From positions 1 through 41,475 of the IMG/VR virus record IMGVR_UViG_3300001682_000073: DNA of 41,475 bases; one strand, 5' to 3'. Under the pieces are notes generated by a model. That model was not told the DNA's origin. It saw only the letters and a program-made list of their open reading frames with translations, and made no database searches. Shown one piece after another: positions 9,003 to 41,475 of this stretch. Source of the DNA: a virus. The position numbers were made by a program, and so were the translations under genes. The stretch's first letter is position 1; each line of letters opens with the position of its first letter.

Positions 9003-10283
9003 TCACTTTTCTAAACAGAAAAACTTCATATATCGCTTATCAAACTTCATTCTGATATTCCCTGTCCTGCCGTTACGTTGTTTTGCGATGATGACTTCAA
9101 GCTCAACTATGCTGTCGCTGATGGTTTCATCCGGTTTTGGATTGTAAAGAAAGATTACGTTGTCAGCGTCTTGTTCGATAGCCCCTGTTTCTCTGAGGTC
9201 AAACAGTTGCGGGCGTTTGTGGTTTTTTTGTCCCTCTCTGCTAAGCTGAGATAGAGCTACCACAGGAATGTTTAAATTCATACTCATTAGTTTCAATTCC
9301 CTGCTGATATGCTCAATTTCCAACCGCCTTGATTCGTGCTTATCAGATGACTTAAGCAATTGAAGATAATCAATTACAATAAGGTCAAGCTGCCCTTTTT
9401 CCTTTTTCCTTTCGCACTTATTGCGGATTTGCTGGATTGTCGTGCTGGTCTGGTCAATCGTTATTGGTAACTTAGATACTAACCTTGTTGCTTGTACTAA
9501 GGCTTGTCCTTCCTGTTCAAATAGATACTTTGGTCTTTTGGTATCCTCAGCTTTAATAAGCCTTGTGTTGCACAACAGCCGTGTCGCTATTTGGATTCGG
9601 TTCATTTCACGGGAAAATAACTCCACCTTAAACCCTTGCTTTGCCGCGTTAGCCGATATGTCCAAAGCAAATGCCGTTTTTCCCGTCGCCGGACCGGCCG
9701 CTATGATCGTAAATTCTGATTGCCACAGCCCGCCCATGATTACGTCCAAGTCTCTCATACCATAAGGTATAGGCTTTATTGCCCCTGACGCTATGCCGTC
9801 AAGGTGATTGATGGTTTCCTCGACGATCGAATTCATATCCTCCGGCGTTTCATCGAATTTTGGTAGAGACAGGTCTGCTTTGTTGGATATGTACTGTGCC
9901 ACTTCCTCCGGCTTCTCAAACGGCTTGTTTCCCAATTCCTCAATAATTGACCGTGCCATTTTTGCCGCCTGACGCTTAAGTGATAATGTTTTAACTATAT
10001 TAACGTGATTCTTGTATCCAACTGGTACAACACAACTCATTATTGTTGCCAGTTCGCCCATGTCGTGCCCCTCAGACGACACACTGATTAAGTCAATAGG
10101 CTTGTTTTTATTCCATAGCTTTTGGATCGTGGCGAATATGGCTCGGTATTGCGGATTGTAAAAGTCATGAGGCATAAGCGTGGTCACGCAATATTTGATA
10201 GTTGACGTATCGGACATCATACAGGCTATAAGGTTTTGTTCGGCTTCTTCATTCTTCCAGGCCAATTCCGGTAAGGTCTGCAT
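9003..10283 (-). CDS. dnaB: Replicative DNA helicase, DnaB family
   Basis: Walker A GPATGKTAFALDI, DYLQLL, and the QLSREGQ and EQDAD motifs. GGAGGAGGAGG RBS before the ATG at 10283. Confidence 0.9.
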   Translation of the reverse strand: MQTLPELAWKNEEAEQNLIACMMSDTSTIKYCVTTLMPHDFYNPQYRAIFATIQKLWNKNKPIDLISVSSEGHDMGELATIMSCVVPVGYKNHVNIVKTLSLKRQAAKMARSIIEELGNKPFEKPEEVAQYISNKADLSLPKFDETPEDMNSIVEETINHLDGIASGAIKPIPYGMRDLDVIMGGLWQSEFTIIAAGPATGKTAFALDISANAAKQGFKVELFSREMNRIQIATRLLCNTRLIKAEDTKRPKYLFEQEGQALVQATRLVSKLPITIDQTSTTIQQIRNKCERKKEKGQLDLIVIDYLQLLKSSDKHESRRLEIEHISRELKLMSMNLNIPVVALSQLSREGQKNHKRPQLFDLRETGAIEQDADNVIFLYNPKPDETISDSIVELEVIIAKQRNGRTGNIRMKFDKRYMKFFCLEK

Positions 10284-10947
10284 ACTTTGGGCCTCCTCCT
10301 CCATCCTTCTCATTTCTCTCCCATGTCCTAACGGCCGCCTTCCAGTCTTTCATTTTTGCTTTTCCGACAAGCCAACCTTTGGATGTGTAAAAATCAATAA
10401 AGCGTTGAGGGTCAACCGAGTTGTTGCGTTCTTTGCAATAACTGGTCACTTCTTCGAGGGTGGGAGGTATAAATATATTATTATTTGACTTTTTAGAATT
10501 CTTTGTATTTTTAGTATTCTTATTATTGTTCTCTATCTGTTCTCCATCTGTTCTTTCTCCGTTCTTTCTCTGTTCGTTCTCTGTTTCATGCTCATCTTTG
10601 TAATTATTCAAACATTGGTATTTATCATAATTTACAACGGTAAATAGCGTTCCAAGTTCACATGGCTGCACTGTTACTCTTTCTTGCTTGACTAAATTAT
10701 CAATTGCTCTCTTTATTGCGGATAAGGAATACTGTTTTACTGCGTGATTTTCTATATACTCTAAATCTCGTTGTAAATTACGATATGATCTAATCCATTG
10801 TCCTCTTTTAAGTTCAATGTTTCCAACTCTGACTCCATCGGTGAAGGCAGCCTTTCCATATATGAGAAAGAACAATCTAAACTCAACAATGTTTAGCCAT
10901 ATTGGGTTGTCAAATATATCTCTTGTAGTTTGAAAGGCTCCTGCCAC
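10249..10947 (-). CDS. Replication initiator / replisome organizer (N-terminal winged helix, Asn/Lys linker, DnaD-like C-terminal helper region)
   Basis: Lies directly upstream of and overlapping dnaB. C-terminus reads PTLEEVTSYCKERNNSVDPQRFIDFYTSKGW...DWKAAVRTWE. Confidence 0.6.
   Translation of the reverse strand: MAGAFQTTRDIFDNPIWLNIVEFRLFFLIYGKAAFTDGVRVGNIELKRGQWIRSYRNLQRDLEYIENHAVKQYSLSAIKRAIDNLVKQERVTVQPCELGTLFTVVNYDKYQCLNNYKDEHETENEQRKNGERTDGEQIENNNKNTKNTKNSKKSNNNIFIPPTLEEVTSYCKERNNSVDPQRFIDFYTSKGWLVGKAKMKDWKAAVRTWERNEKDGGGGPKYADLTGIGLEE
10460..10590. promoter_or_regulatory. Candidate replication origin inside the initiator gene: phased CTGTTCT iterons next to an AT-rich block
   Basis: ATCTGTTCT at 10535 and 10546 (11-nt period) plus 3-4 degenerate copies up to 10587. 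Positions 10460..10530 are almost pure A/T. Confidence 0.35.
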
Positions 10948-13402: not shown

Positions 13403-14281
13403 TTAGTCATACTCGTCCATTTCTATCTGACCGTTCATTCCCTCGTCTGGCATTTTTGTGTATCCCATCCACCAATCATAAATCTGTTGCCCTGTTTTCC
13501 ATGAGCTTTTACTATCGTTCATTCCGTGTTCGTTTCGGTATTTTGCAAGTTTTTCAAATGCTCTTATATAGGCTCTTTTGTATGTAGGCCATCTTTCAAA
13601 CTCTCGCTCTCGGCCTGCTTGTCCTGCCATTGGACAACCGATACACCCCAAACGGTCAAATCCTTCATCGTACAGCTTGCAATACTTGAGATCACGACTT
13701 TTTATGTAATCCCAAACATCTTCATCCTCCCAATCTACGATGGGGTTTACTATCTGCTTACCTTTTAACTGGCAGGTTTCCATCATTCGTCTGGCTTCTG
13801 CGTTATCGTTGAACAATATAGGCTTAGAGGTTTTACCTTTTCTGAGCTCAATTACTGCCCTGCTGTTTTTTCTGCGAGATGATTCAGCCCACCTTACCCC
13901 CGTAACGCATATTCGCCCTTCACCGCCATGCTCTTTGAGTATTTCACAACAATATCTAACCATCCGGGTTGGTGGCATCCTATGTTTTACAATTAATTGC
14001 CACATTGTCATTTCCGGCTTTTCAACAATCACATCAGGGTAATTTTCACGGATAAAATAGACTAATTCCGGCGGGTCAACTGTTGTTAAATTGTAATGTG
14101 CATCGAACTTTACTCCTGCCTCTTTAGCAAGGTGATATATACATTGACTGTCCTTGCCTCCACTAAAGGCCAAATAATACCCTTCTGGCGGTTCAAATGT
14201 TTTTAATCTGTCTATGGCTTTTTTGATTTTATCTTCAAGGGCTGTACGCCCAAACATTGTTAGTTGCTCCGTTTTTCTCAC
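13403..14281 (-). CDS. PAPS-reductase / PP-loop ATP-pyrophosphatase family protein (start is GTG 14281 or ATG 14257)
   Basis: PP-loop motif YLAFSGGKDSQ and a C-terminal Cys cluster YCKLYDEGFDRLGCIGCP. Confidence 0.7.
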   Translation of the reverse strand: MRKTEQLTMFGRTALEDKIKKAIDRLKTFEPPEGYYLAFSGGKDSQCIYHLAKEAGVKFDAHYNLTTVDPPELVYFIRENYPDVIVEKPEMTMWQLIVKHRMPPTRMVRYCCEILKEHGGEGRICVTGVRWAESSRRKNSRAVIELRKGKTSKPILFNDNAEARRMMETCQLKGKQIVNPIVDWEDEDVWDYIKSRDLKYCKLYDEGFDRLGCIGCPMAGQAGREREFERWPTYKRAYIRAFEKLAKYRNEHGMNDSKSSWKTGQQIYDWWMGYTKMPDEGMNGQIEMDEYD

Positions 14282-14305
14282 CCTCTTTAGTGCATATTAA
14301 TTCCG

Positions 14306-14923
14306 TTACGTGTTCTTCACCACCCCATGCAAAAATGCACAGGTCTCAAAAATCTTGAATCCGTCTTTTATGTCTACCTTGATAAAGTCGTAAGAAGCGT
14401 CATGTCTGAGATGTAAAATGTAGTGATTTTTTACTTGGATCCCGTGAGACTTCAAAGCTTCGGAATACCCGTACAACTGCGCCGCTACTAAAGGCTCTAA
14501 AATCGTTTCTGAGGTCTTAAAATCAACAAGTGATAAATTACCTTCCTCAAGAAATAAACGGTCTAATTTGCCCGCGTAGAGCCTTGTACGGTGGTATATC
14601 GGGTACTCGTTTGCAACGGTCTGGAAGTTGTGGTCTTGCACCCATTTTTCATAAGCGAGTATGTACGGCAGGGTGTCTGGTTCGCACTCCTTCCACCCGT
14701 AGTTGTCGTAGGCTTCGATTGCTTCGTGTACCCTGGTTCCTTTGTCGGCGGCCTGATCTAAGACCGACTGAGGCACATCGCCGTAAATCTCACGGCTGAG
14801 GAATCTCAAAATTTGTGTCACAGATGGAAGCTCAAAGGTAATACCGTTCTGGTCAAGTGTATATAGGTGCTTGTCCTCGTCAAAGTGGAGTTCTGAAAAT
14901 TGAGGTAATGATATTTCCATCAC
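14306..14923 (-). CDS. PD-(D/E)XK (RecB/Cas4-like) exonuclease
   Basis: GTRVHEAIE ... GKLDRL ... LVDFKTS ... QLYGY, which is the order of the nuclease motifs. Confidence 0.65.
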   Translation of the reverse strand: MMEISLPQFSELHFDEDKHLYTLDQNGITFELPSVTQILRFLSREIYGDVPQSVLDQAADKGTRVHEAIEAYDNYGWKECEPDTLPYILAYEKWVQDHNFQTVANEYPIYHRTRLYAGKLDRLFLEEGNLSLVDFKTSETILEPLVAAQLYGYSEALKSHGIQVKNHYILHLRHDASYDFIKVDIKDGFKIFETCAFLHGVVKNT

Positions 14924-15189
14924 GATTCCCCCAATGTGACTTTGAATTGCTCGTAATACCAGTCACGGAATTTTTCAGCCATGTCGGATTCTTTTACAAA
15001 CTGGATAAGTTCCTTTTTTGTGGCATCGAAAAATACGGTTTTGATTGCACATTCAAGGCATATGTAATCTTCTTCAACGAACACTACTTCTTCATCTTTG
15101 TAAAGTGGTTTTTCACACTCGACACACTCGGCGATCGGCTTGTGTTCCTTTGGCTCGGGGAAGTATTCAAGCATTTCAGGCATTGGCAT
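14920..15189 (-). CDS. Hypothetical protein with CxxC...CxxC (start uncertain)
   Basis: CVECEKPLY...YICLEC motifs. The ORF is in the operon. Confidence 0.45.
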   Translation of the reverse strand: MPMPEMLEYFPEPKEHKPIAECVECEKPLYKDEEVVFVEEDYICLECAIKTVFFDATKKELIQFVKESDMAEKFRDWYYEQFKVTLGES

Positions 15190-15433
15190 CACCGTCAATG
15201 TTGATAAAACCTGTGCCGATGTATTCAACTTCAATACTCCATCTCTGCCCGACATTTTCAACTTTTAATACCGTGCTTCCATCGTCGTACTTATGAATGT
15301 TAATATCAAATGAAAGATAACCTGGTATGACCCCATCTTTACACATGGCTTTTATGTTGTATCCGTTTTCAATAAGTGCCTGAGCTAATACATTAGCAAG
15401 TTTGACAATAATTTTGTCCATATTTCTGTTCAT
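15176..15433 (-). CDS. Hypothetical protein (85 aa from MNRNMDK)
   Basis: GGAGGAAAGG RBS before the ATG at 15433. Confidence 0.5.
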   Translation of the reverse strand: MNRNMDKIIVKLANVLAQALIENGYNIKAMCKDGVIPGYLSFDINIHKYDDGSTVLKVENVGQRWSIEVEYIGTGFINIDGDANA

Positions 15434-15501
15434 TGACCTTTCCTCCATTTCGTGATATTTTAAAATTGACTGATTATCTATGCCCTTATTAGGGCTGTTT
15501 T

Positions 15502-15765
15502 TTATTTGAACCTGTCCCATCGAGTAGCGATAAAATCGTTGATCCTGTCACGCTCTCGATTTCGTTCCGCATAAATCCCGAACCGATAGCTTGTCCAACA
15601 CATGAAGGGGATTGTTGCGAAGAATACTACTGTTACGATGATTTCAAGCGTGCCGAATAAATACCAATCGTCTTTTGTGATTAAGACGAATAGAATCGCT
15701 ATGAATAAGCACCCTAATGCTGTCATAAGTACAAATAATGCTCTGTAAAATTGTTGTTTAGTCAT
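15502..15765 (-). CDS. Small integral membrane protein (2-3 TM segments)
   Basis: Hydrophobic segments ALFVLMTALGCLFIAILFVLI and LEIIVTVVFFATIPFMCW. Confidence 0.55.
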   Translation of the reverse strand: MTKQQFYRALFVLMTALGCLFIAILFVLITKDDWYLFGTLEIIVTVVFFATIPFMCWTSYRFGIYAERNRERDRINDFIATRWDRFK

Positions 15766-15779
15766 TGGGCTTGTCCTCC

Positions 15780-16034
15780 TTACAGCCTTTCGTTGATGCT
15801 ATAAACATCTTTTGCAATTGTTTCCATGCGGGTACGGACAAGTCTTAGAGCACTCTCCAGGTCGTCAATTACAGGTTGGTTTTCCGTTTCGCACGGCCTA
15901 AGGCCGAATAACTTACAGTTTATGCTTTCCACTTGGGTTCCTATAGCTCTAGTAATTTCAACTAATGATGCTACCAATGATGATAAAGTTTCTTGTTGTG
16001 GTGCTACTGCACATGCTTTCAAGTTTCCGTTCAT
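15780..16034 (-). CDS. Hypothetical protein
   Basis: The ATG at 16034 overlaps the upstream stop (ATGA). Confidence 0.5.
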   Translation of the reverse strand: MNGNLKACAVAPQQETLSSLVASLVEITRAIGTQVESINCKLFGLRPCETENQPVIDDLESALRLVRTRMETIAKDVYSINERL

Positions 16035-16207
16035 TTTCTTTCCTCCTTGCATTCAGGGCAATAATGATTCCAACTATTGCCGTTCTTCTTTTTCTGCCAT
16101 CCTTCGTCACGCATGTATTTCAAAGCTTCGTCCCAAGTGTCAACCTCAGCACCGTCACCGCAATTGTCACAAACTATCATGTAACAAGTGCCGTTTTTGT
16201 CTATCAT
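16031..16207 (-). CDS. 58-aa zinc-ribbon protein (CDNCG...CPEC); not in the ORF track
   Basis: Hand translation gives MIDKNGTCYMIVCDNCGDGAEVDTWDEALKYMRDEGWQKKKNGNSWNHYCPECKEERK. AAGGAGGAAAACC RBS. Confidence 0.5.
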   Translation of the reverse strand: MIDKNGTCYMIVCDNCGDGAEVDTWDEALKYMRDEGWQKKKNGNSWNHYCPECKEERK

Positions 16208-16224
16208 GGTTTTCCTCCTTTCAT

Positions 16225-16899
16225 TTAGACGGTTACTAATACTTGATTAAGCACTTTTCTTAAGTAGTCAACTCCCTTTGCTGTTACATACGTCTGTGCA
16301 TAATTGATTGTCGTTTCGCCCATTGTGATGGGCTTTTCCTTGACCTCGAAATAGCCACGGTCGATATACTCTTGATATGGCGTGTTGTTATTGCGCATGA
16401 TTTTCTTTTCCCTGAGAAGTGCAAACAGTCTGTTCCTGCCATAGCCGAGGCATTTAGCAACATCGTTCATAGTCTGGAGGTTTGAACCGTCCATGAAGGT
16501 GTCGTAGGCCTGGGCTTTGGGGAGTAATTTTTGACGTTCTTCCTCCAGATCGGCGGCGAGCCTGAGGGCTTCGGCGAAGGTCTTTGGAACTTTGTATTTG
16601 CTGATTTGCTGTTCAGCTTTCATAGCAAGCTCGATCAGTTTCGCTCTTGTTACCGCATCATATCTGGCTGCCAGTTGAAGCACACCCTCTTTGGACAAGA
16701 TGTAGTACGGGATTTTTCTGCCAGTAGGATCTGTTCTTTCACTCAACGCAAATTTGCGTTCAGTGCCGATGTTTGATTTTTGGAGTTTTTCGGATTCATC
16801 ACGAATATCTCGAAGAATGTCTGCGTGACGCTTGCCTGTGATCTCGGCGATCTGCATTGACGTGATTGACTGATTAATGGTCATTATTTCAGTCGTCAT
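16225..16899 (-). CDS. Phage antirepressor: Rha-type N-terminal domain plus KilA-C/ANT C-terminal domain
   Basis: MQIAEITGKRHADILRDIR (pRha-like) and LQTMNDVAKCLGYGRNRLFALLREKKIM...YIDRGYFEVKE (KilAC-like). Confidence 0.75.
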   Translation of the reverse strand: MTTEIMTINQSITSMQIAEITGKRHADILRDIRDESEKLQKSNIGTERKFALSERTDPTGRKIPYYILSKEGVLQLAARYDAVTRAKLIELAMKAEQQISKYKVPKTFAEALRLAADLEEERQKLLPKAQAYDTFMDGSNLQTMNDVAKCLGYGRNRLFALLREKKIMRNNNTPYQEYIDRGYFEVKEKPITMGETTINYAQTYVTAKGVDYLRKVLNQVLVTV

Positions 16900-16911
16900 A
16901 TGTACCCTCCT

Positions 16912-17169
16912 CTATGCGCTTTTGTGCTTTAAAAATTGCAGATTATGCAATCTTGGTTCAAAAAAAATATCCATGTTTGAAGTGTTTAAGAGGTTGCAGA
17001 TCTTAATCATTTCTTTGAGTGTGAAATCCGAACGTCCGTGCAACTTCTCGTTTAAAGCCTGTTGTGTAATCCCAAGCGCATAAGCAAAGCTTTTTAGATT
17101 GTACCCATTAGCAGTTATTTCGCCACGCAACTTAAGGAACATCTTTTCTTTGGTCGCAATATTACCCAT
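16912..17169 (-). CDS. Cro-like XRE-family HTH regulator (first gene of the leftward early operon)
   Basis: HTH YNLKSFAYALGITQQALNEKLHG. AAGGAGGATAG RBS, directly downstream of a strong promoter. Confidence 0.65.
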   Translation of the reverse strand: MGNIATKEKMFLKLRGEITANGYNLKSFAYALGITQQALNEKLHGRSDFTLKEMIKICNLLNTSNMDIFFEPRLHNLQFLKHKSA

Positions 17170-17228
17170 TCGTTCTATCCTCCTTATTAGTTAAGTTAAA
17201 ATTGTATAAAATGCAATTCTTTAATTAT

Positions 17229-17256
17229 ATTCTATCACCATTAAAATTTATGTCAA
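17229..17256 (-). promoter_or_regulatory. Leftward early promoter (TTGACA, 16-nt spacer, TAGAAT with upstream TG)
   Basis: Minus strand reads TTGACAtaaattttaatggTGaTAGAAT, ~60 nt upstream of the ATG at 17169. Confidence 0.65.
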
Positions 17257-17298
17257 TGTATTTTTCTCAATTTTAATTAGGAAATTATTAAATAAATA

Positions 17299-17327
17299 TT
17301 GAATTTTCTGCAATCACCGTATATAAT
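17299..17327 (+). promoter_or_regulatory. Rightward promoter (TTGAAT, 17-nt spacer, TATAAT), divergent from the early promoter
   Basis: Exact spacing counted. Followed by a GGAGGTAGG RBS and the ATG at 17351. Confidence 0.65.
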
Positions 17328-17350
17328 ATTAAACTGTGGAGGTAGGTAAT

Positions 17351-17515
17351 ATGGATATCGAAAGAATATTAAGAAACGCAACCGAAAGGCTGGCTGAAAT
17401 AAGGACATCGTCAGGTCTCAACCAAAAGCAATTTGCTGAATTGTTTGGCGTAGAGCCGTCTACTTATAACAGATATGAAAATGGTGGTATTGGCAATATG
17501 CCAAGAGACTTCTAA
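17351..17515 (+). CDS. 54-aa XRE/CI-like HTH ORF, apparently 3'-truncated (ends inside tRNA-like sequence)
   Basis: LAEIRTSSGLNQKQFAELFGVEPSTYNRYENG covers HTH helices 1-4. The ORF stops at the TAA of a tRNA anticodon-loop-like CTTCTAA, and the last helix and any C-terminal domain are missing. Confidence 0.5.
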   Translation: MDIERILRNATERLAEIRTSSGLNQKQFAELFGVEPSTYNRYENGGIGNMPRDF

Positions 17516-17553
17516 TCCGTCGGTCGGGTGTTCGAATCATCTCTGGCACGCCA
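17507..17553 (+). other. tRNA-Arg(TCT)-like 3' fragment (anticodon loop to CCA); putative attP core remnant
   Basis: CTTCTAA loop, T-arm GGGTG-TTCGAAT-CATCT, acceptor 3' strand CTGGCAC, then G and CCA. No matching 5' acceptor or D-arm lies upstream, so it is not a functional tRNA. Confidence 0.55.
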
Positions 17554-17559
17554 CTTTCA

Positions 17560-17600
17560 GAGGTCGTGAGGTCGAAAAAACCTCACAAAAACCTCACAAA
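17560..17600. repeat. Short direct/inverted repeats next to the attP-like core (2x GAGGTCG, 2x CCTCACAAAAA with 11-nt period)
   Basis: GAGGTCGTGAGGTCGaaaaaaCCTCACaaaaaCCTCAC. GTGAGG is complementary to CCTCAC. These are possible arm-type sites. Confidence 0.4.
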
Positions 17601-17605
17601 AATTT

Positions 17606-17631
17606 AAGCCAGGTTAAAAACCTGGCTTTTT
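17606..17631. terminator. Bidirectional intrinsic terminator
   Basis: AAGCCAGGTT-aaaa-AACCTGGCTT followed by TTTTT. It abuts the stop of the minus-strand gene at 17631. Confidence 0.7.
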
Positions 17632-17843
17632 CATTTCCATTTAAATAGAGTTTCCGGGGATAGATTAAATTTTTGGATCAAGAGAATGCAATCATACAAA
17701 GTCAGTGCCTCGGGATGTTGTTCTTTTTCCTGATACTTCTCTACGGTCGTATTCATTATTGCTGCCATTTCGTTTTCTTGTAGCCCATATTGCTTTCTCA
17801 GTTGCCCAATGCTGAAACACGAATGTCCACCAGTGCACCCCAT
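17631..17843 (-). CDS. XRE-like HTH protein (70 aa from MGCTGG...)
   Basis: GGGAGTGAG RBS before the ATG at 17843. FSIGQLRKQYGLQENEMAAIMNTTVEKYQEKE resembles an HTH_3 domain. Confidence 0.5.
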   Translation of the reverse strand: MGCTGGHSCFSIGQLRKQYGLQENEMAAIMNTTVEKYQEKEQHPEALTLYDCILLIQKFNLSPETLFKWK

Positions 17844-18013
17844 TGTCTCACTCCCTTTATAAGCTGCTGGATAATATTTACCCATTTAACACTGGAATAA
17901 AGGTTTGTAACAAAATCTTAACATGGCGTATTTCGCCCTAAATTATGGCATTCATCGGATTTTCTAAGCGGATTGTGCTACTATTTTCCTAAAAACATTA
18001 GGGTGATTTTACC

Positions 18014-18223
18014 ATGATAAGACTTCATCTATCAAGACTATTAGGGGATAGGAAAATGAGTATATTAGAGCTTCACAGGCGTACAGGAATAAGATATAAA
18101 ACGCTGACTGAATATTATCACGAAATGGCTTTAAGTATTAAATTCGAACACATCGACAAGATTTGTGAAGTTCTTGGCTGTACCGTTGGTGAATTGATAG
18201 AATATATTCCTAAAAAGAATTGA
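18014..18223 (+). CDS. XRE-family HTH regulator, 69 aa
   Basis: LSRLLGDRKMSILELHRRTGIRYKTLTEYYH...ICEVLGCTVGELIEY is a typical Cro/CI-type HTH. AGGGTGA RBS. Confidence 0.7.
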   Translation: MIRLHLSRLLGDRKMSILELHRRTGIRYKTLTEYYHEMALSIKFEHIDKICEVLGCTVGELIEYIPKKN

Positions 18224-18256
18224 CCGTCTGTTTTCGTTGTTATATAATTCCAGTGG

Positions 18257-18436
18257 GTGATAGGATTGCAAAAAAAACGAGATGATTTTGCTTCATCGAT
18301 ATCTTTGGCAACATTTATTATTTCTCTTATTGTATGTATGGTGATAATAAAAGAACGATACAACCTTACTTTTTCGATGATTATTTCTTTATCACTAGCT
18401 TTATTGACAGATAAATGTTTGTCAAAGAAGGAGTAA
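18257..18436 (+). CDS. Possible 59-aa two-TM membrane peptide (GTG/TTG start, weak RBS)
   Basis: Hand translation gives ...ISLATFIISLIVCMVII...LTFSMIISLSLALLT.... Its stop overlaps the RBS of the next gene. Confidence 0.25.
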   Translation: MIGLQKKRDDFASSISLATFIISLIVCMVIIKERYNLTFSMIISLSLALLTDKCLSKKE

Positions 18437-18437
18437 T

Positions 18438-18578
18438 ATGGCTGAATTCTGCCTTGAATGCTATAATAAACTCCATAAATCCAACCTTAAGAAGTCAGAT
18501 GTGAAATTATGCCCTGATCTATGCGAGGGCTGCGGAAAAATTAAAAAGACTATTGTATATATTAAAAGGAACCGTTAA
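18438..18578 (+). CDS. 46-aa zinc-ribbon protein (CLEC...CEGC); not in the ORF track
   Basis: AAGGAG RBS 5 nt before the ATG, followed by a terminator. Confidence 0.5.
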   Translation: MAEFCLECYNKLHKSNLKKSDVKLCPDLCEGCGKIKKTIVYIKRNR

Positions 18579-18590
18579 GGCTCCTTTTTT
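18564..18590 (+). terminator. Intrinsic terminator after the plus-strand accessory genes
   Basis: AAAAGGAACC-gttaa-GGCTCCTTTT followed by TT. Confidence 0.6.
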
Positions 18591-18679
18591 ATATCTTCAT
18601 TTATTAAATCAACATGTAAACTATACTTTACATATTTCCTATATAAAATGCAAAGTATACTTGACATATGTTATATAAT

Positions 18680-18721
18680 AAAAATAAAAACCCCGCCCAC
18701 TTAGGACGGGGTTTCGTTTTT
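18680..18721. terminator. Strong bidirectional terminator at the end of the lysis cassette
   Basis: AACCCCG...CGGGGTT stem with T-runs on both strands. The holin stop codon lies in the loop. Confidence 0.7.
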
Positions 18722-18892
18722 ATCCTTCTTCGTAAAGAAGTATGTAATTATCGCACCGTAGGCCGTGCTGAACAGCGACAGTATTTCTTTGGGTGGATCA
18801 AACTTTCCCAAGAGCAAGGTTGCCAGTATAGCGGTCATGGTCAGGGTAACAATGGATTTAACGTCAATCAACTTAGCGATTTTCTCTTTCAT
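18701..18892 (-). CDS. Putative holin (63 aa, two TM segments, charged C-terminus)
   Basis: IVTLTMTAILATLLLG and LFSTAYGAIITYFF segments with a KKDKNETPS tail. It is adjacent to the endolysin. Confidence 0.65.
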   Translation of the reverse strand: MKEKIAKLIDVKSIVTLTMTAILATLLLGKFDPPKEILSLFSTAYGAIITYFFTKKDKNETPS

Positions 18893-18895
18893 ATC

Positions 18896-19996
18896 TTATG
18901 CTCCTTTCAAAATATCCTGTATAGCGTTTATCATGGCTTGAAGCCTGCCGATTTCTTTTTTTAAGGCTTCGTTTTTCTGTCTGAGTTGTTTCACCTTTTC
19001 GCTGTCGGTGTCGATCTTGATGGCTTTGATCTTCTCGTAGATGGCAAGGATAGACTGTCCGTATGTAGTTCCCGGATAAGCCCATTTCCCATTTAAGTCT
19101 GTCCATGTCGGTGCTGTGCCGATGTATCCGGCCTGTTTTGCCGCTTCATAGCGTGGGTCAACAAGCGGATTCTTGAATGTCGGGTTTTTAACCGCATAGG
19201 CTTTAAGATGCTGAATCTGCGCCCTGATGCCCGTTCGCCAGTCGGGGAATTTACAGCCGACAGGTTCACCGTTTACGATCTGGCCAGTTACACCAAGCCC
19301 GGCAGGATTGCACCATTCGATTTTAGCAAGGCCTGTAAAGCGGAAATAGTCTGTCTCGTGGATTGCCTGGCAAAAAGCTATATCTCCCCTGACACCTTCA
19401 GCTTTTCCTTCTTCCAGATAGATTTCTTCTATCCCCTGCGGAGCGTTTGGGTTTATTTCACGGAGAAATTTTCGCATTTGCTCTACTGTTAATTCTGATT
19501 CGCCCATTATGTATACTGATTCGTTCACGGCATTTATCATCTTTTCAAGCGGAAAATATCGTCCCGGGCAAGCTGTGGACTCCCATTTTTTATGTCCGGC
19601 TATGGTTTTGATGTTGGGTAATACGCTCTTAAGCCATTTCAGTAACCATACACCGGAATTAAATTGAGCATCAGGCATAGTTTTGTCTTTGTTGTCATAG
19701 TCGCCCTGAAATACGATGCTTAGCACTTTTTTATTTAAGTCGCCTGTCACGCCGCCGCCCTCATACTGGTATCCTCTTGTTTCCCATATGTCGCCATTCT
19801 TGTCTACCTCATACGCATAGGCATGACCTTTCCAACCTCTGCCGCCTTGTTCAACTGTTCTGCCGTGGTAGTCATGGATCTCTTTCACTCCCCATGTTGG
19901 ATGCGCTACGTGATGTATAGCGATTCCTTCGTATTTGGATATGTCGGCTGGGGTCAATGGTCTTACCCATGTCAAGTTTGCTTTCTTGATTTCCAT
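18896..19996 (-). CDS. Endolysin: N-acetylmuramoyl-L-alanine amidase (Amidase_2/PGRP-like) plus glucosaminidase-like domain plus C-terminal coiled coil
   Basis: GIAIHHVAHP...GW.GH.Y...HKKWESTACPG (amidase_2) and FCQAIHETDYFRF...NPAGLG (glucosaminidase-like). Confidence 0.8.
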   Translation of the reverse strand: MEIKKANLTWVRPLTPADISKYEGIAIHHVAHPTWGVKEIHDYHGRTVEQGGRGWKGHAYAYEVDKNGDIWETRGYQYEGGGVTGDLNKKVLSIVFQGDYDNKDKTMPDAQFNSGVWLLKWLKSVLPNIKTIAGHKKWESTACPGRYFPLEKMINAVNESVYIMGESELTVEQMRKFLREINPNAPQGIEEIYLEEGKAEGVRGDIAFCQAIHETDYFRFTGLAKIEWCNPAGLGVTGQIVNGEPVGCKFPDWRTGIRAQIQHLKAYAVKNPTFKNPLVDPRYEAAKQAGYIGTAPTWTDLNGKWAYPGTTYGQSILAIYEKIKAIKIDTDSEKVKQLRQKNEALKKEIGRLQAMINAIQDILKGA

Positions 19997-20005
19997 TACA
20001 TCACC

Positions 20006-20266
20006 TCATTTATTCTGGATGTACCAGATTAAAAAGCCCATTAAGGCCATAAAAATAGAGGCTATAAAGCCCCATATCGCCTTTGTTAGTCCGCTTATCG
20101 CCTTTGCTTGCTTTTCCAGGTTGTCGCATAAGTTATCAATCTGTGTTTTCTTTGACGCATCTGAGATCTTGAGTTCTTCGATATCCTCGTCGTGTTGTTC
20201 GAGCCATTTTTCATGGCGTTGGATAGCCTCTTTCATTGGCTGATGGATTATATCGCATTCACTCAT
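20006..20266 (-). CDS. xhlA: XhlA-like lysis-associated membrane protein
   Basis: N-terminal coiled coil (HEKWLEQHDEDIEELK) and a single C-terminal TM (IWGFIASIFMALMGFLIWYI). It lies upstream of the endolysin. Confidence 0.6.
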   Translation of the reverse strand: MSECDIIHQPMKEAIQRHEKWLEQHDEDIEELKISDASKKTQIDNLCDNLEKQAKAISGLTKAIWGFIASIFMALMGFLIWYIQNK

Positions 20267-20294
20267 GTTTGCACCCGCTTTCTGTGTAAACTAA

Positions 20295-20316
20295 GAGGGG
20301 CTTTATTTAGCCCCTC
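20295..20316 (-). terminator. Hairpin at the 3' end of the 1453-aa gene
   Basis: GAGGGGCT-aaataa-AGCCCCTC on the minus strand. The stop codon lies in the loop and the tail is moderately T-rich. Confidence 0.45.
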
Positions 20317-23300
20317 CGATAATGATTCCTTTTGCTTCGTCATAGTTACTTTCAACGATACTTTTTACCCTCTTAGCACGTTGTTCATCGGTTAATTCCT
20401 TATACTCGCTTGAAGTAAACAGTCGTGCAAGGTCATTGTAGTTTTTTTGCCCCATAATTCGGGCAAATTCGGTCTTTTGCTCTGGGGTAAGGGTATATGC
20501 CACCTTGTTCTTAGTAAAGTTGTTAGGGGCTGTTTTAGGCAAAATATCATTGTCGTTTACGGATTCGTACAGTCGTGCCATTTCGTTAGTGACAGGATCA
20601 TCACTTCTTGCCCTGAAATATCCTGGGCTAATAAATTGCTGTAAAGCGCCGCCCTGAGACTGTTCCTGCCCCCAAATGTTCAATGCCGGTTCAAGCGTTT
20701 GAGACAGTCCGGGTATTCTGGCCCTGATACCACGCCACCATTGACCGATTGAATTCGGGTCGTATGTGCTGCGCCTAACCGGGTCAATCGTCCTTGCTGT
20801 CTGTCCTAATACCGATGCAATAGCCTGTTCCAGATAGTCAATAGGAATACCCATTATCTTTTCTGTCGGGCTGCCGTAACTGCCAAGAATCTCCCTGATG
20901 TTCTGCAGCATGGTCATATTAAATATGGTGTCACCGCCTGCCGCTATGCCATCAATCACAGCCTGAATAATGGTGTCTCCGTCTTTGCGGTCACGGATTG
21001 CTTCTTGTGCCGCAATACCCATTGCAAACGGAATTGAGAACGGTTGCGCCCAATCGAATGTATAACTACCCAAAGGCGTATTGATTGCATATCTTTGGTC
21101 GCCAAGTTCTTGATACAAGGCTTCGGCTTTATCGCTTCTCTTGCGGTTTACCTTCGCCCAGCCAATCGAGCCGAGCCAGAAGCCTAACGCCCCGATAGCG
21201 GAACCAGTCAAACCTTTAGACAGGTCCTCAATTACCGTTGCGGCAGTTTTGCCTGCCTTAATGTCGTACAAGGCTTTAATGATCCCGCCGGGAGAATACT
21301 CAATACCTCGCATGACAATGTTTGCAGGCGTTTGAGTGAATGGGATTGCACCCTCAACGAAGAACCCGGCGACAGGTACATTTTTAGCCTTGTTTATGAA
21401 GTCAGCTAACATATTTGCTTGCTTAAATGTCGCTTCTAACGCCCTACGTTTTGCATACTCAATAGCTTCGGACGTTACTTCGGTCATGTTATTTGCCTGT
21501 AAATACTGCCCCAAAGCGTCCTTATAGGCTCTCTCTGTGAAAATATTATCTTCCAAGTTGAGAGACTTTAAACTGACTTCATTAAGCCATTGCAGGACGG
21601 GGTTTCTGAATATCTGCTTTTCTCGTCCCAATGATTTCAGGTTTCCGATTTCCCATCTGCTCTCGCCTAATATGTCTTTCTTAACGGTATTCCAGTTTTC
21701 GTTGACTTTGGCAACTATATCTTTGTTGAAGCTCCATCCGACGGATTGCGTTCTCTGTCCAGCAGGCACAAACGCCTTTTGAAGTGCTGCCCCAATAGTA
21801 TCAGCCGCTTTCCGCATACCCATCATAATGACGTTGCCACCGACGTTGCGGATATGAGTTTTCGGGTTTAGCAGCATAGCCATACGCCGCCATGCGTTAA
21901 ATTTCTCTATGCCGCTTGAATGTAATTCTTTAGATATTCTGTTCCCTATTTGTTCCCATACGCCGTCATATGCCTGTTGGTCGCCCTTCGGAATATTTTT
22001 TATTGCTTCAATTTCCTCAGATGTTAAATCAACGTCCTTCCACTTCTTGCCGTACTTCTTACGCCCTTGTTCATTGAGTTTCTTCAATTGCTTATCCATT
22101 GTCATAAGGAAGGTTTCGGGGTCAGCTTCACGCAAAATTTTAGCCGCCTGCGAGAATTGGCCGGCTTCGGTTAACTTCTCGGCAACGGAGGAAAGGATTT
22201 GTCGGGCTTTGCCTATGTCTCCCTGTTCGGCTGCCTGTTGAGCAAGCATCTTGGCAAGGGGTACGTCTGCGGGCCGGAACGAATTACTGGATATGGATTG
22301 ATAGAAGTCCGCTTCGGCTTCCGCCTGTCCCTTATTGAAGATTTCCTGAGCCTTTTCCAAGGTCTTTTGGTTACTCAACTGCTTGTAAACTTCGGGGTTT
22401 TCATCGAAACTTGCCCGAATATCTTCATTCATAGCCGCATCAGTACGGATGTTCTGTGAAAAGCCTCGTTCTCTCATGCCTTCGGGGATAGTACCCATTG
22501 GTTCTTCGCTGAATATTCTGGCTTGCTGTGGAGCTTCTGTTGTTGGAGCCGCCTGTTGCTGTGCCTGCTGGTTTTGTGTGGTTGGCTGGGTCTGTTGTTC
22601 AGTTTGAATGGGTGGATAACCACCTATAGGGGTAAATGCCTCCTTTGCATACTGAGGTTGCACTTTTGGCGGCTGAGATGATCGTAACACAGTAAACGGC
22701 GTTTCTCTGCGGTATTGCTCGGGCACGGTATGGATGATGTTTTGTTCCGCTGTCTCATAAATTTCTTTTGCTTTTTGTAATTTAGGATTTGTAAGTATCA
22801 AGTTACCTTCTACATCAAAGCTTTTCTTCCACCCTCTTGCTTCAAATGTTGGAATTGTAACCCGATTAAGCTGTGCTTTGTTTATTGCATATTGTTTGCT
22901 TAAATCCAAGTCAGCCTGAGTTATATCTCCCAACAAGTCTTTATTTATTGTTACCTTTTCAAGATTATGTCTTAAGGGTATCATGTTGTCCCTTGCATCT
23001 CTTGTACCAGCGTCAACAAGGTATTCCCCATTTTCAGGGTTAAAAACTTTCTTAGTATTCCGAACAAGTGGCACATTTTCATCAGAAAATTGTAGCATTA
23101 TACCCCTATTAGTTCCTTGTCCAAGTGCTAATTCTGGTGATTTCGTAACATATAGTTCATTAGGAAATGCGCCATAAGGAGCGTCGTATGCTATGCTATC
23201 TACATAGGCAAGAAGTCTATCGGGGCCTACTTCCCTATATAATTTATTAGGTTCGCTTGAAAAAGCAGTGTTAGGAAACCTTGGATGTACTGGTTCGTCA

Positions 23301-31550: not shown

Positions 31551-32396
31551 TTACTCGCCAGAAGATTCGGCAGCAGGCTTAACAGGGATACAGATCAGTT
31601 CCTTCGGAACTACAACCTTTGCACCGCAAAGCATAAGACCCCTGTGAATGTCACCAAATCTCTTGGGATGCCTGATAACCTCAGACTGGTTGATCTGTTC
31701 AGCAAAGGCTATTGCCTTTTTGGTTCTGACAAGGCAGTAATGAACGCCGGCATTCTCAACAATGTTGTTGGAAACATAGATATCAAGGCCCCACAGCTTC
31801 TTAACAAAGCCGGTTTCCAATGTCTTGCTGTTGTCGGTGTCGGTCACGATTTTAGCAAGTACCAGCTTAGCGTACACATCAGGCGAAATTTCAAGATACT
31901 TGGTCTCGCCTTCCGGTACGTTGGCTTTCAGCATTTCCTTACTGGCAGCTGCAAGCAGAGCAAGAGCGTCAGCGCTTGTGAAAGCTGACTGGAAATCAGT
32001 AATGGTCTTTCCAGCGTCGGCATATTTACCGAACACAAACTGATCGGCATAATCAGACAGCTTGTATGCGGCATTCCTGATGTGGGCATTCTCGAAAGCC
32101 TGCATCTTGTCCATCTGTTTCTTGTCCACATCGTCAATGTAGAACTGGAACGCCTTGGATTCGGTGATGTCGAGGAACTGAGCAGAACCGTCAAGAATCT
32201 GCGGGTCGTCCATGTCCGTATTGCGGGTGTAATTGAACAATTCAACCTCGCCGGGGGTCAGAATCTTAACGCGATCGCCCTTGTCCTTTATAGAGCCTTC
32301 ATATTCTCTGTTACAGTGTTTAACTGCGATTGCTGCCTTTTCCCTTTCCTCAAGCAGCTTGGCATATACTATCTCAGGTATAAATTCGTATGCCAT
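31551..32396 (-). CDS. Major capsid protein (putative)
   Basis: A 281-aa ORF directly after the scaffold-like gene, with a GGGGAGTG RBS. Assigned by position and size. Confidence 0.6.
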   Translation of the reverse strand: MAYEFIPEIVYAKLLEEREKAAIAVKHCNREYEGSIKDKGDRVKILTPGEVELFNYTRNTDMDDPQILDGSAQFLDITESKAFQFYIDDVDKKQMDKMQAFENAHIRNAAYKLSDYADQFVFGKYADAGKTITDFQSAFTSADALALLAAASKEMLKANVPEGETKYLEISPDVYAKLVLAKIVTDTDNSKTLETGFVKKLWGLDIYVSNNIVENAGVHYCLVRTKKAIAFAEQINQSEVIRHPKRFGDIHRGLMLCGAKVVVPKELICIPVKPAAESSGE

Positions 32397-33972: not shown

Positions 33973-33979
33973 AAATCTT

Positions 33980-34021
33980 GCCGCTGGATACCCCTGAATT
34001 TATTCAGGGGAGGAAAGCGGC
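33980..34021. repeat. 42-nt compound hairpin at the left edge of the tnpB element (candidate left-end structure)
   Basis: GCCGCT-ggata-CCCCTGAAT-tt-ATTCAGGGG-aggaa-AGCGGC. Confidence 0.5.
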
Positions 34022-34037
34022 TTATCCCCCTTTTCTA

Positions 34038-34066
34038 TTGACTTATTTGCTCAATAGTAGTATAAT
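34038..34066 (+). promoter_or_regulatory. Near-consensus sigma70 promoter of tnpB (TTGACT, 17-nt spacer, TATAAT)
   Basis: Spacing counted exactly. It lies 25 nt upstream of the ATG at 34091, with AGGCAGGTG as RBS. Confidence 0.7.
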
Positions 34067-34090
34067 TAATCTTGAAAGGCAGGTGATATA

Positions 34091-35173
34091 ATGCTTTGCA
34101 CTCTCAAGATTAAACTTATAACAAGTAACGAACAATTTAATGCTTTGCTTGAAACTATGAAGGTATTTAATCAAGCATGTAACTATGCCAGTGAAATAGC
34201 TTTTAATTCTAAAACTTTTTCACAGGTTAAACTACATAAAATTGTTTATTATGATATTCGTGAGAAATTCGGATTATCTGCTCAAATGGCTGTTAGAGTT
34301 ATTGGCAAAGTTGTTGAAAGTTACCGTGTCGACAAGAAAACTCTGCATACCTTTAAAGAAACTGGAGCTATTGTTTATGATGAACGCATATTATCCTTTA
34401 AAGGCTTGGAATATGCTTCAATCCTTACTTTACAGGGCAGAATTGAAGTACCGATGATTATCAGCAAATATCATCAAGGCTTGCTCGCTGGCAGGCGTGT
34501 CCGTGGGCAGGCGGACTTAATCCTGCAAAACGGCACATTTTATCTCCTCCTCGTTGTTGATGTTCCCGAAAGCGAACCTAATTCTAAAAACGGCTTCATC
34601 GGCGTTGATTTTGGTATTGTAAATATTGCAGTTGATAGCACTGGCGAAGTATTCTCTGGCGATAAGGTTAACGGCCTTCGGAAGCGTTATGCTAAACTTC
34701 GTACTAAACTACAAAGTAAAGGCACTAAATCAGCTAAACGTTTATTAAAAAAACGTTCCAAGAAAGAAAAGCTATTTGCTCGTGATGTCAACCACTGTAT
34801 ATCTAAGAAGATTGTTGCAAAGGCTAAGGCACTCGGTTGCGGAATTACCCTTGAAGATTTAAAAGGCATCCGTAAACGCACCGAGAAAACGGTTAGAAAG
34901 TCTCAGCGTAGGCAACATTCTTCTTGGGCTTTTTGCCAGCTTAGGCAATTTATCGAATACAAAGCTAAAATTGCTGGTGTACCTGTTGTATTGGTTAACC
35001 CCAAGAATACTTCTCGCACCTGTCCAGTTTGTGGGTATATTGCTAAAGGAAATAGGCCATCAAGAGATAAATTCTGTTGTCAGGTTTGCGGTTACGCTGC
35101 GCCAGCCGACAACGTGGCTGCGGAGAATATCCGCAGGGCTGCTGTCAACCAGCCAGACGCGGCAACCGCTTAG
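34091..35173 (+). CDS. tnpB: TnpB (IS605 OrfB-family RNA-guided RuvC nuclease), 360 aa, catalytic motifs intact
   Basis: RuvC-I GVDFGIVNIAV, RuvC-II ITLEDLKGI, zinc ribbon CPVCGY...CCQVCGY, and RuvC-III APADNVAAENI. Confidence 0.85.
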   Translation: MLCTLKIKLITSNEQFNALLETMKVFNQACNYASEIAFNSKTFSQVKLHKIVYYDIREKFGLSAQMAVRVIGKVVESYRVDKKTLHTFKETGAIVYDERILSFKGLEYASILTLQGRIEVPMIISKYHQGLLAGRRVRGQADLILQNGTFYLLLVVDVPESEPNSKNGFIGVDFGIVNIAVDSTGEVFSGDKVNGLRKRYAKLRTKLQSKGTKSAKRLLKKRSKKEKLFARDVNHCISKKIVAKAKALGCGITLEDLKGIRKRTEKTVRKSQRRQHSSWAFCQLRQFIEYKAKIAGVPVVLVNPKNTSRTCPVCGYIAKGNRPSRDKFCCQVCGYAAPADNVAAENIRRAAVNQPDAATA

Positions 35174-35214
35174 GTTAGCTGCAAGCCTCCGACTTCAGTC
35201 GGGGGTAGTTGACA
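35040..35214 (+). ncRNA. Candidate omega-RNA (reRNA) scaffold overlapping the tnpB 3' end, ending in the right-end hairpin (35186..35205); the 5' limit is a guess
   Basis: By analogy with characterised TnpB loci. An 8-bp hairpin CCTCCGAC-ttca-GTCGGGGG starts 13 nt after the stop. No covariation analysis was possible. Confidence 0.35.
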
Positions 35215-37276: not shown

Positions 37277-37332
37277 ATGTTTCACCTCATTTCTGAGCAA
37301 TAAACTTGCATTCAGACACTCCTTTCAGGTGT

Positions 37333-41011: not shown

Positions 41012-41475
41012 CGCCTTGACTATTTTCTTTTGATTTTTTGGCTCGTCCCTTCTTTATAAAGTCTCTTGACAGCTTGTAACCGTCCTTGTCGTGGGAGAGA
41101 ATGCCGTATTCTTTCAGTTTGTTCACAATCTCAGCCGTTTTAGCCCTGCTCTTACCGAATATGTCTATGAAGTCCTCAAACCGTAACGGCTTTTTCTTGC
41201 GTTTATACTTCAATAATCCGGTGTGCCATGAAGTTTTGCTGAGAAGCGGCCATAAGTAACCTAATATCTCATAATCAGGTTTTTTCTCGTTGATGAACTT
41301 ATCTAAGTCTCGTTCAACTACCATGTAATACGATGGCTTACCGCCGGTCCTACTTTTGCTTCTGTCTGCGTCAGGCGGTTTGCGTTCAAATTCGTACCAC
41401 AGTTTGCCGATCTCAATGTCGCCGACTTTAAGGATTAATTGAATCCCTTTATCGTTTTTGAAGCCCTTAACAATA
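40995..41475 (-). CDS. C-terminal body of the junction-spanning winged-helix-like protein (N-terminus at 141..1; 41388..41475 duplicates 1..88)
   Basis: The frame is open upstream of the track M at 41324 through to the window end. C-terminus reads SRAKTAEIVNKLKEYGILSHDKDGYKLS (wHTH-like). Confidence 0.6.
   Translation of the reverse strand, partial: IVKGFKNDKGIQLILKVGDIEIGKLWYEFERKPPDADRSKSRTGGKPSYYMVVERDLDKFINEKKPDYEILGYLWPLLSKTSWHTGLLKYKRKKKPLRFEDFIDIFGKSRAKTAEIVNKLKEYGILSHDKDGYKLSRDFIKKGRAKKSKENSQGGEQFA
41388..41475. repeat. Second copy of the 88-bp terminal repeat
   Basis: Identical to 1..88. Confidence 0.95.

Follow-up and report, generated by a model that had tools for sequence, protein, structure and literature searches.

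The stretch of DNA analyzed here (the window) covers positions 1 to 41,475 of the IMG/VR virus record IMGVR_UViG_3300001682_000073, i.e., 41,475 nt, and our subject is its lysogeny locus around 17351-17632, where a truncated gene for a CI-like repressor, cI′, runs directly into the 3′ part of a tRNA-Arg(TCT) gene, short phased repeats, and a bidirectional terminator (Table 1). A preliminary description made from the sequence alone had listed these elements, and we recovered every one of them, displaced by 2 nt at most. Leftward of cI′ lie a Cro-like early gene, assigned from its location in divergent orientation to cI (no Pfam match is recorded for it), and an antirepressor gene that has been retained, as described earlier, with its Phage_pRha and ANT/KilAC domains. 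The two sites of the proposed divergent promoter pair are both present and are the best or near-best promoter matches of the region; promoter-like hits in the region overall number 7 versus 5.9 in shuffled sequences, i.e., not above shuffles, so that the support for the two promoters is positional.

The rightward open reading frame (ORF) encodes 54 residues and ends, as previously noted, with a TAA (17513-17515) that closes the anticodon-loop sequence CTTCTAA (17509-17515). Its product had been described as stopping before the last helix of the helix-turn-helix (HTH) domain; this part did not hold, since the cut falls after helix 3 and two helices (4 and 5), not one, are lost. In LexA/CI proteins the S24 domain provides dimerization and RecA-stimulated self-cleavage, and repressors of this type combine a complete HTH with a C-terminal Peptidase_S24 domain bearing a Ser/Lys dyad. 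The cI′ product matches Pfam HTH_3 only at model positions 1-32 of 55 and contains no S24 domain, although 53 of its 54 residues are identical to the CI of a relative (L046; contigs and loci used for comparison are designated by L numbers) that runs on into a Peptidase_S24 domain. It is thus alike to CI/LexA-type S24 repressors over its first 53 residues and, lacking helices 4-5 and the S24 domain, a fragment of one. An insertion that pushed the remainder of CI downstream was also considered and ruled out, as there is neither a downstream plus-strand ORF nor a tblastn match to the CI C terminus.

To the right of this boundary, the sequence is that of a real tRNA. We searched the T-arm and acceptor-strand pattern of the fragment in the GTDB species genomes and found it at 27 places, all in metagenome-assembled genomes (MAGs) of Clostridia/Bacillota and mostly from biogas reactors, which supplies the cognate bacterial tRNA that the preliminary description had sought; the pattern has no match in IMG/VR. 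Twenty-five of the 27 matches lie within tRNA-Arg(TCT) genes called by ARAGORN, and window positions 17507-17553 agree with these genes at 47/47 in 14 MAG loci and at 46/47 in the 11 others, the sole variable base among the 25 genes being in the variable loop. The identity begins at 17507, rather than at 17505 as first proposed, with the last two bases of the 5′ strand of the anticodon stem (tRNA position 30) and ends with CCA; the T stem, GGGTG/CATCT with two G-U pairs, is the native stem of this tRNA. ARAGORN finds no complete tRNA in the window and no 5′ half is present, and an Rfam scan of 16800-18400 returned chance-level matches only and no tRNA, as expected for an internal half-tRNA. 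The fragment is therefore identical to tRNA genes of the host group, as in a phage attachment site (attP) that targets a tRNA, and its core is incomplete: the window reads AGAGA-CTTCTAA-TCCGT where the tRNA and the intact attP read ACGGA-CTTCTAA-TCCGT, i.e., the left core half-site, formed by the 5′ strand of the anticodon stem, is destroyed.

When the 54-aa ORF served as protein query, the matches were the ORF itself and a further-truncated form of 39 aa and no others; the intact allele was missed in this way and was reached through exact-protein look-ups of two flanking genes. The Cro-like protein is identical on 13 other contigs and the protein of the small gene at 17631-17885 on 2 others; an integrase search then yielded a 35-kb phage contig and a 2.9-kb contig, both spanning the locus. 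Scans for the Cro-like protein gave no match in IMG/VR and only a 4.1-kb Foulum contig in the JGI metagenomes. The intact allele is present in L040, L045, L046/L050, L048, L049, and L051, from at least five samples; the locus is covered from end to end by L046/L050, L048, and L049 and in its left part by L040 and L045, and an identical copy of the Cro-like protein adjoins the full-length cI in L040, L045, L048, and L049.

In the orientation of the window, the intact allele consists of cro (minus strand), cI (211 aa, HTH_3 and Peptidase_S24), the gene for a tyrosine integrase (int; 381 aa, Phage_int_SAM_3 and Phage_integrase, with an RHDLRH...LGH...Y signature), the sequence TACCTCACTAAAAACCTCAC directly after the int stop codon (two ACCTCAC repeats), a spacer of ~135 nt, a core CAACGGACTTCTAATCC...GGCACGCCA of 52 nt identical to tRNA positions 25-76, and then the same sequence as the window from 17554 onward, with the P′ repeats, the terminator, and the downstream gene. 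For relatives, the prediction had been that a complete repressor and an integrase would separate the truncated ORF from the tRNA fragment, and this is what we find; the opposite outcome, the 54-aa ORF conserved in them as a complete gene, is not observed, since they carry the 211-aa CI instead. The 35-kb contig, L048, shares synteny with the window from a RecT-like gene through the tail genes, and ARAGORN finds no complete tRNA on it; what L048 displays is thus the intact phage in its attP form, as opposed to a prophage. The protein of the small HTH-like gene at 17631-17885 has an identical counterpart beside int-attP in L046 and is absent from L028, L036, L039, L044, and L037.

The comparison resolves the difference between the alleles to the nucleotide. 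The sequences CCAAGAGACTTAGT in cI and CCAACGGACTTCTAA in the attP core lie exactly 1,792 bp apart in L046, L048, and L049, and in-silico removal of these 1,792 bp from the three intact alleles gives window 17351-17661 verbatim (a 311-nt exact match). The flanks of the intact allele and the window agree at 598/600 positions on the left and 396/398 on the right, and the extra sequence of the intact alleles falls between window positions 17511 and 17512. The junction carries the microhomology GACTT, and the two parental sites match at 9/11 over the junction and its flanks (17501-17511). To its left is the region of cI codons 51-54 (codon 53) and to its right the beginning of the anticodon loop, which puts the right endpoint 5 nt within the 52-nt core, the intact core being CAACG plus the 47 nt of the window. 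A deletion from inside cI to attP that removed int had been suggested beforehand, with its right end at the edge of attP; the deletion is borne out, and the endpoint has to be moved into the core.

Based on the near-identical relatives (flanks 99.5-100%) and the in-silico deletion, it appears that the window is a recent deletion derivative of a near-identical temperate phage, a reading to which we assign a probability of about 0.92. In this reading, the immediate ancestor was a temperate phage with the order Cro leftward and, rightward, cI, int, P arm, 52-nt core, P′ arm, and terminator, and a single 1,792-bp deletion at GACTT fused codon 53 of cI with the beginning of the anticodon loop in the core. 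Lost in the deletion were CI residues 54-211 (HTH helices 4-5, linker, and S24 domain), int in its entirety, both repeats of the P arm, and the five leftmost bases of the core, so that the half-site ACGGA becomes AGAGA. What is left comprises a 54-aa stub that looks expressed, a 47-nt piece of tRNA, the repeats of the P′ arm, and the terminator.

Table 1. Features of the window and deletion alleles of related phages, in window coordinates (for the deletion alleles, the positions missing)
Feature	Position	Strand	Details
Antirepressor, 224 aa	16225-16899	-	Rha N-terminal (PF09669 Phage_pRha, E = 2e-13) and ANT/KilAC C-terminal (PF03374, E = 7e-25)
Cro-like early gene, 85 aa	16912-17169	-	called from position, divergent from cI
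Promoter-like site, leftward lytic/early operon	17229-17256	-	TTGACA-16-TAGAAT, extended TG, 11/12
Promoter-like site, rightward cI-int operon	17299-17327	+	TTGAAT-17-TATAAT, 10/12
Truncated repressor cI′, 54 aa	17351-17515	+	residues 1-53 from 211-aa CI; residue 54 and stop from tRNA core
Deletion junction	17507-17511	+	GACTT microhomology
3′ fragment of tRNA-Arg(TCT), tRNA positions 30-76	17507-17553	+	47/52 nt of ancestral attP core
P′ arm, likely arm-type integrase-binding repeats	17558-17597	+	CAGAGGT 17558 (degenerate), GTGAGGT 17566 (inverted), ACCTCAC 17580 and 17591 (direct, 11-nt phase)
Bidirectional intrinsic terminator	17606-17628	both	10-bp stem, T runs on both strands
Small HTH-like gene beside attP	17631-17885	-	84 aa from first ATG; 70 aa as called in L048, L049
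DnaB helicase	9003-10313		replication/recombination module (Pfam)
SSB, RusA, Dam methylase, PAPS-reductase-like protein			replication/recombination module (Pfam)
Amidase/glucosaminidase endolysin	18896-19996		lysis module, with XhlA and small holin-like gene (Pfam)
Capsid protein	31551-32396		packaging/head module (Pfam)
P22-type portal	35399-37300		packaging/head module (Pfam)
Large terminase	37580-39199		packaging/head module (Pfam)
Deletion allele L028/L038	17427-17856		cI codon 25 to just upstream of the ribosome-binding site (RBS) of the 70-aa gene; 0-1 nt microhomology
Deletion allele L036, L039, L044 (three samples)	17280-17859		as L028/L038, plus cI promoter; 2 nt microhomology
Deletion allele L037	17403 to ~17893		cI from ~codon 18 on, then a different lysis cassette; 9-nt CTGAAATAA repeat

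The loss of int is not a matter of an incomplete contig. The first and last 88 nt of the window are equal (1-88 = 41388-41475), an exact terminal overlap that marks the contig as a complete closed circle of ~41.39 kb (unique genome, 41,387 bp), and an integrase is thus not concealed beyond its end. Neither Pfam, applied to ~70 selected ORFs of at least 40 aa, nor tblastn of the window with three integrases, the cognate one included, revealed a tyrosine or serine recombinase (nothing better than E = 0.48), in agreement with the earlier claim that the genome has none. An integrase gene adjoins the core directly upstream in L046, L048, and L049, and none does in the window. A 360-aa ORF at 34091-35173 (plus strand) was considered as an overlooked integrase and rejected, as it encodes TnpB.

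Several points weigh against the deletion from a temperate parent. The junction is known from a single assembled contig (P0001: 1 member, 1 contig), the temperate ancestry rests on gene content and on the relatives of the integrase, with no prophage of this exact phage found, and the small HTH genes at 17631-17885 and 18014-18223 could in principle give some repression. An integrated prophage of this exact phage is absent from the 27 tRNA-Arg loci, and no search directed at its left and right attachment sites (attL and attR) was made. In a Clostridia MAG (L052), an Int 50% identical to the lost one directly adjoins a complete tRNA-Arg(TCT) and housekeeping genes of the bacterium, which points to this tRNA as the target of the integrase family. 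Were the intact phage integrated, attL should read as a complete tRNA-Arg(TCT) followed by CTTTCAGAGGTCGTGAGGTCG, and attR as ...GTGCAAGCCAACGGACTTCTAATCC... followed by the terminator of the bacterial tRNA.

An attP whose block of identity starts in the anticodon stem belongs to class A of Islander, for which the crossover is assigned to the anticodon loop (PMC4383910, which cites in this connection the three-subsite scheme of Williams 2002). In the intact allele, too, the tRNA sequence extends from the anticodon stem to CCA, which allows the gene to be restored upon integration, and int likewise adjoins the site, with short arm-type repeats on both sides; this allele is an ordinary tRNA-targeting attP/int/cI module. 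The window differs from such a site in that nothing of it survives but the P′ arm and the rightmost 47 nt of the core.

The phased repeats and the bidirectional terminator reported after the fragment are both present, with ACCTCAC at an 11-nt phase and a 10-bp stem scored on both strands. Counting both strands, ACCTCAC occurs six times in the window, with three copies within 32 nt to the right of the core (17566, 17580, and 17591); two copies that come directly after the stop codon of int in the intact allele fall within the 1,792 bp that were deleted, so that in the window repeats flank the core on the P′ side only. The same heptamer occurs twice per side of a reversed tRNA-Arg fragment in L053, whose Int is 56% identical, and twice per side of a different tRNA fragment in an otherwise unrelated IMG/VR phage (L030/L031), while L052 and L054 (Int 50-52% identical) have another repeat, AGATTGGTA, at the equivalent positions. 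The two-sided position, the tandem phasing, and the covariation with the integrase indicate that these repeats are likely arm-type sites. The terminator hairpin forms in the minimum-free-energy fold of 17500-17640 (z = -6.2).

Relatives of the integrase place the same target in two orientations. In L052 (2437-2700), L053 (4152-4420), and L054 (4170-4430), with Int 50-56% identical, the tRNA-Arg(TCT) core is inverted relative to int, and int would lie beside the regenerated tRNA after integration; in the lineage of the window, int flanks the core at its anticodon side, reads in the sense of the tRNA, and is expected beside the displaced fragment after integration. One integrase family thus uses the same tRNA target with a flipped attP. 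The L030/L031 phage (IMGVR_UViG_3300012117_000003, 7800-10460) shows cI (248 aa), int (477 aa, 26% identical), repeats, core, and repeats in this order, and its core is the 3′ part of a tRNA with a long variable arm (Ser/Leu type), yet the arm repeats are ACCTCAC.

On the bacterial side, the two remaining matches of the 27, L002 and L011, are displaced tRNA-Arg(TCT) fragments, and in front of each lies an unrelated tyrosine integrase of 512 aa that is directed towards it; in L011 (924-2670) and L002 the displaced fragment, 49 nt long, is followed by the native bacterial flank and constitutes an attR. These displaced fragments show that this tRNA serves as an attachment site in these bacteria, and at least two integrase lineages therefore use this tRNA-Arg in these Clostridia. 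A tblastn comparison of the window proteins with the 27 bacterial tRNA-Arg loci gave no match, so that none of those MAGs carries this phage. In L013 (2015-2036; Clostridiaceae MAG AS04akNAM_121), the complete tRNA-Arg(TCT) and its terminator precede the 21-mer AAAACCTCACAAAAACCTCAC, which is the arm-type repeat pair that the window also has; the conserved bacterial neighbor gene comes directly after it, with no prophage between. The 21-mer, which is lacking at the other 24 tRNA loci, may be the scar of a lost element from the same integrase family.

The junction also bears on how the deletion was made. We consider microhomology-mediated illegitimate recombination or replication slippage the probable cause, if with some reserve; the 9/11 agreement is enough for slipped-strand or other RecA-independent illegitimate recombination. 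A possible, though doubtful, route is that the phage's own integrase recombined the attP core with a pseudo-core site in cI (CCAAGAGACTTAGTATTCAGG) of the same molecule and excised a cI′-int-P-arm circle. Int-promoted deletions with one endpoint at att are reportedly known from phage lambda, and the present case resembles them in having one end at the attP crossover region and the other at a weakly similar phage site; it differs in that the pseudo-site of the window has no right half-site, and Int dependence is here only a candidate. The switch from cI to the core occurs within GACTT, at the left boundary of the 7-nt anticodon loop in which class A sites cross over (Islander, PMC4383910), the cI site matches the core at 9/11 left of and into the loop, and none of the other three deletion alleles at this locus ends in the core, where a random endpoint is a priori unlikely. 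On the other hand, the pseudo-site matches the right half-site at only 2/5 (TTCAG vs. TCCGT) and lacks dyad symmetry, the overlap positions match at only 4/7, the 9/11 microhomology alone suffices for RecA-independent slippage, and the finding was selected because it abuts a tRNA, so the coincidence looks inflated.

Three other readings were weighed. That an assembler joined cI and attP reads of an intact phage is very unlikely: the junction is indeed found in a single contig and intact alleles occur in similar samples, but its homology of 5 nt exact (9/11) is far under any assembler k-mer, the contig closes on itself with the 88-nt overlap, and three other clean deletions at the locus, one of them in three independent samples, indicate that it is deleted in nature. 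Because flank-identical relatives read the same codons into a 211-aa S24 repressor, it is barely credible that a small HTH protein, natural and complete, is encoded by the 54-aa ORF and that the tRNA fragment works as an attP served in trans by the integrase of another element or prophage; small XRE-type proteins are common, and neither the P′ arm nor the 47 nt of the core is damaged, yet the domain is cut at HTH_3 position 32/55, the P arm and the left core half-site are missing, and the 54-aa product occurs on one contig only. Finally, the tRNA piece and the DNA downstream of it could be bacterial, captured by aberrant prophage excision of the specialized-transduction type, for which the occurrence of AAAACCTCACAAAAACCTCAC downstream of a complete tRNA-Arg in L013 might be cited. 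This origin is next to impossible, as the sequence right of the core is identical at 396/398 positions to the P′ arm of intact, nonintegrated alleles and differs from all 25 downstream flanks of the bacterial tRNA, and neither a tRNA 5′ half nor a bacterial gene is present.

A deletion in a temperate parent, as we prefer to read the locus, has consequences for the lifestyle of the phage. The 53-residue piece retains three of five helices and is unlikely to fold or to bind an operator, and under the lambda paradigm a site without Int, the P arm, and a complete core would not be expected to recombine. The phage would then neither repress its lytic promoters nor integrate, leaving lytic growth only, and its phenotype, judged from the sequence, is probably obligately lytic. 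The intergenic switch region (17170-17350) is the same as in the parental alleles, and lysogens of the intact phage should therefore still repress the deletion phage; the retained operator region would make it a clear-plaque type rather than a vir type. The preliminary description had spoken of a recently virulent derivative of a temperate phage, of which "derivative" stands and "virulent" is better replaced by a clear-plaque, nonlysogenizing type. Judging from the rightward promoter, a strong Shine-Dalgarno sequence (GGAGG) on the transcript of cI′, and the terminator (17606-17628), a short RNA with cI′, the tRNA piece, and the repeats is probably still produced; we see no reason for assigning a function to it.

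Three further deletions at the locus occur in otherwise 98-99% identical phages (Table 1), with right ends within ~40 nt upstream of the 70-aa gene, and the leftward promoter is kept in every deletion allele. Thus, four distinct deletion alleles, that of the window included, and the intact one come from the same kind of sample, and one lytic form is widespread; the L036/L039/L044 allele was recovered from three samples. Several deletion alleles imply that the lineage lost its lysogeny functions several times or stepwise. We tentatively raise the idea, which we regard as unlikely on present evidence, that loss of cI-int is a recurrent, partly integrase-catalyzed route that keeps temperate and lytic morphs coexisting in digesters; preferred breakpoints would then be the attP core, as in the window, and the 40-nt stretch upstream of the 70-aa gene, as in L028, L036/L039/L044, and L037.

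Events of this kind are known, and no new mechanism or kind of element is needed. Mycobacteriophage D29, when compared with L5, is reportedly a natural lytic derivative of a temperate phage by deletion in the lysogeny module, and the Streptococcus thermophilus phages Sfi19 and Sfi11 are said to be lytic deletion derivatives when compared with Sfi21. The present case is alike in having a near-identical temperate relative, a deletion of a few kilobases that takes repressor and/or integrase, and remnants in the form of cro, the antirepressor, and the switch region; it differs in that both alleles come from metagenomes rather than isolates, that the breakpoint, known to within 5 nt, falls in the attP core, and that at least four deletion alleles coexist in the same type of habitat. 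Virulent and temperate S. thermophilus phages are likewise closely related (PMC3952083). The locus thus offers what is probably a natural temperate-to-lytic transition in uncultured digester phages, with parental and derived alleles resolved to the nucleotide, and its value lies chiefly in this parent/derivative pair and the allelic series. Tools that judge lifestyle from matches to an integrase or a repressor would classify this phage as lytic and its siblings, at 99% identity, as temperate. For phage therapy and biotechnology, natural deletions resembling the engineered temperate-to-lytic ones recur here at one locus, and the residual tRNA fragment provides a clue to the host, i.e., Clostridia with this variant of tRNA-Arg(TCT).

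As a whole, the window is best explained as a complete circle, the genome of a podovirus-like phage whose hosts are Clostridia of anaerobic digesters. Almost all of its genes are encoded on the minus strand, and along that strand the order is packaging, structure, lysis, the 17.2-18.9 kb region, cro, ant, and replication (Table 1). It is at the equivalent of this region that attP, int, and the repressor are located in phages of Gram-positive bacteria. A corresponding module order has been described for S. thermophilus phages (PMC3952083), and a megablast comparison of window 14000-22000 with the phage GenBank collection gave zero matches.

Two segments outside the lysogeny locus are absent from several relatives. 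The TnpB noted above (OrfB_IS605 and Cas12f1-like TNB domains), for which no identical protein is on record elsewhere, is the sole product of a 1,240-bp element of the IS200/IS605 type at 33974-35213 with hairpins near both ends. The element is inserted precisely between the stop codon of a small post-portal gene and the start codon of a 201-aa glycosyltransferase-like gene, and the same two genes abut, with the element lacking, in four relatives (L056-L059). To the right of the lysogeny locus, a 709-bp segment (17905-18613) is absent from the intact alleles and from all the deletion alleles, and a variant of it is found in L047. It encodes a 69-aa HTH_26 protein of the Cro/C1 type (18014-18223), a 59-aa membrane-like ORF (18257-18436), and a 46-aa zinc-ribbon-like ORF (18438-18578), and the segment resembles a moron, situated between attP and the holin.

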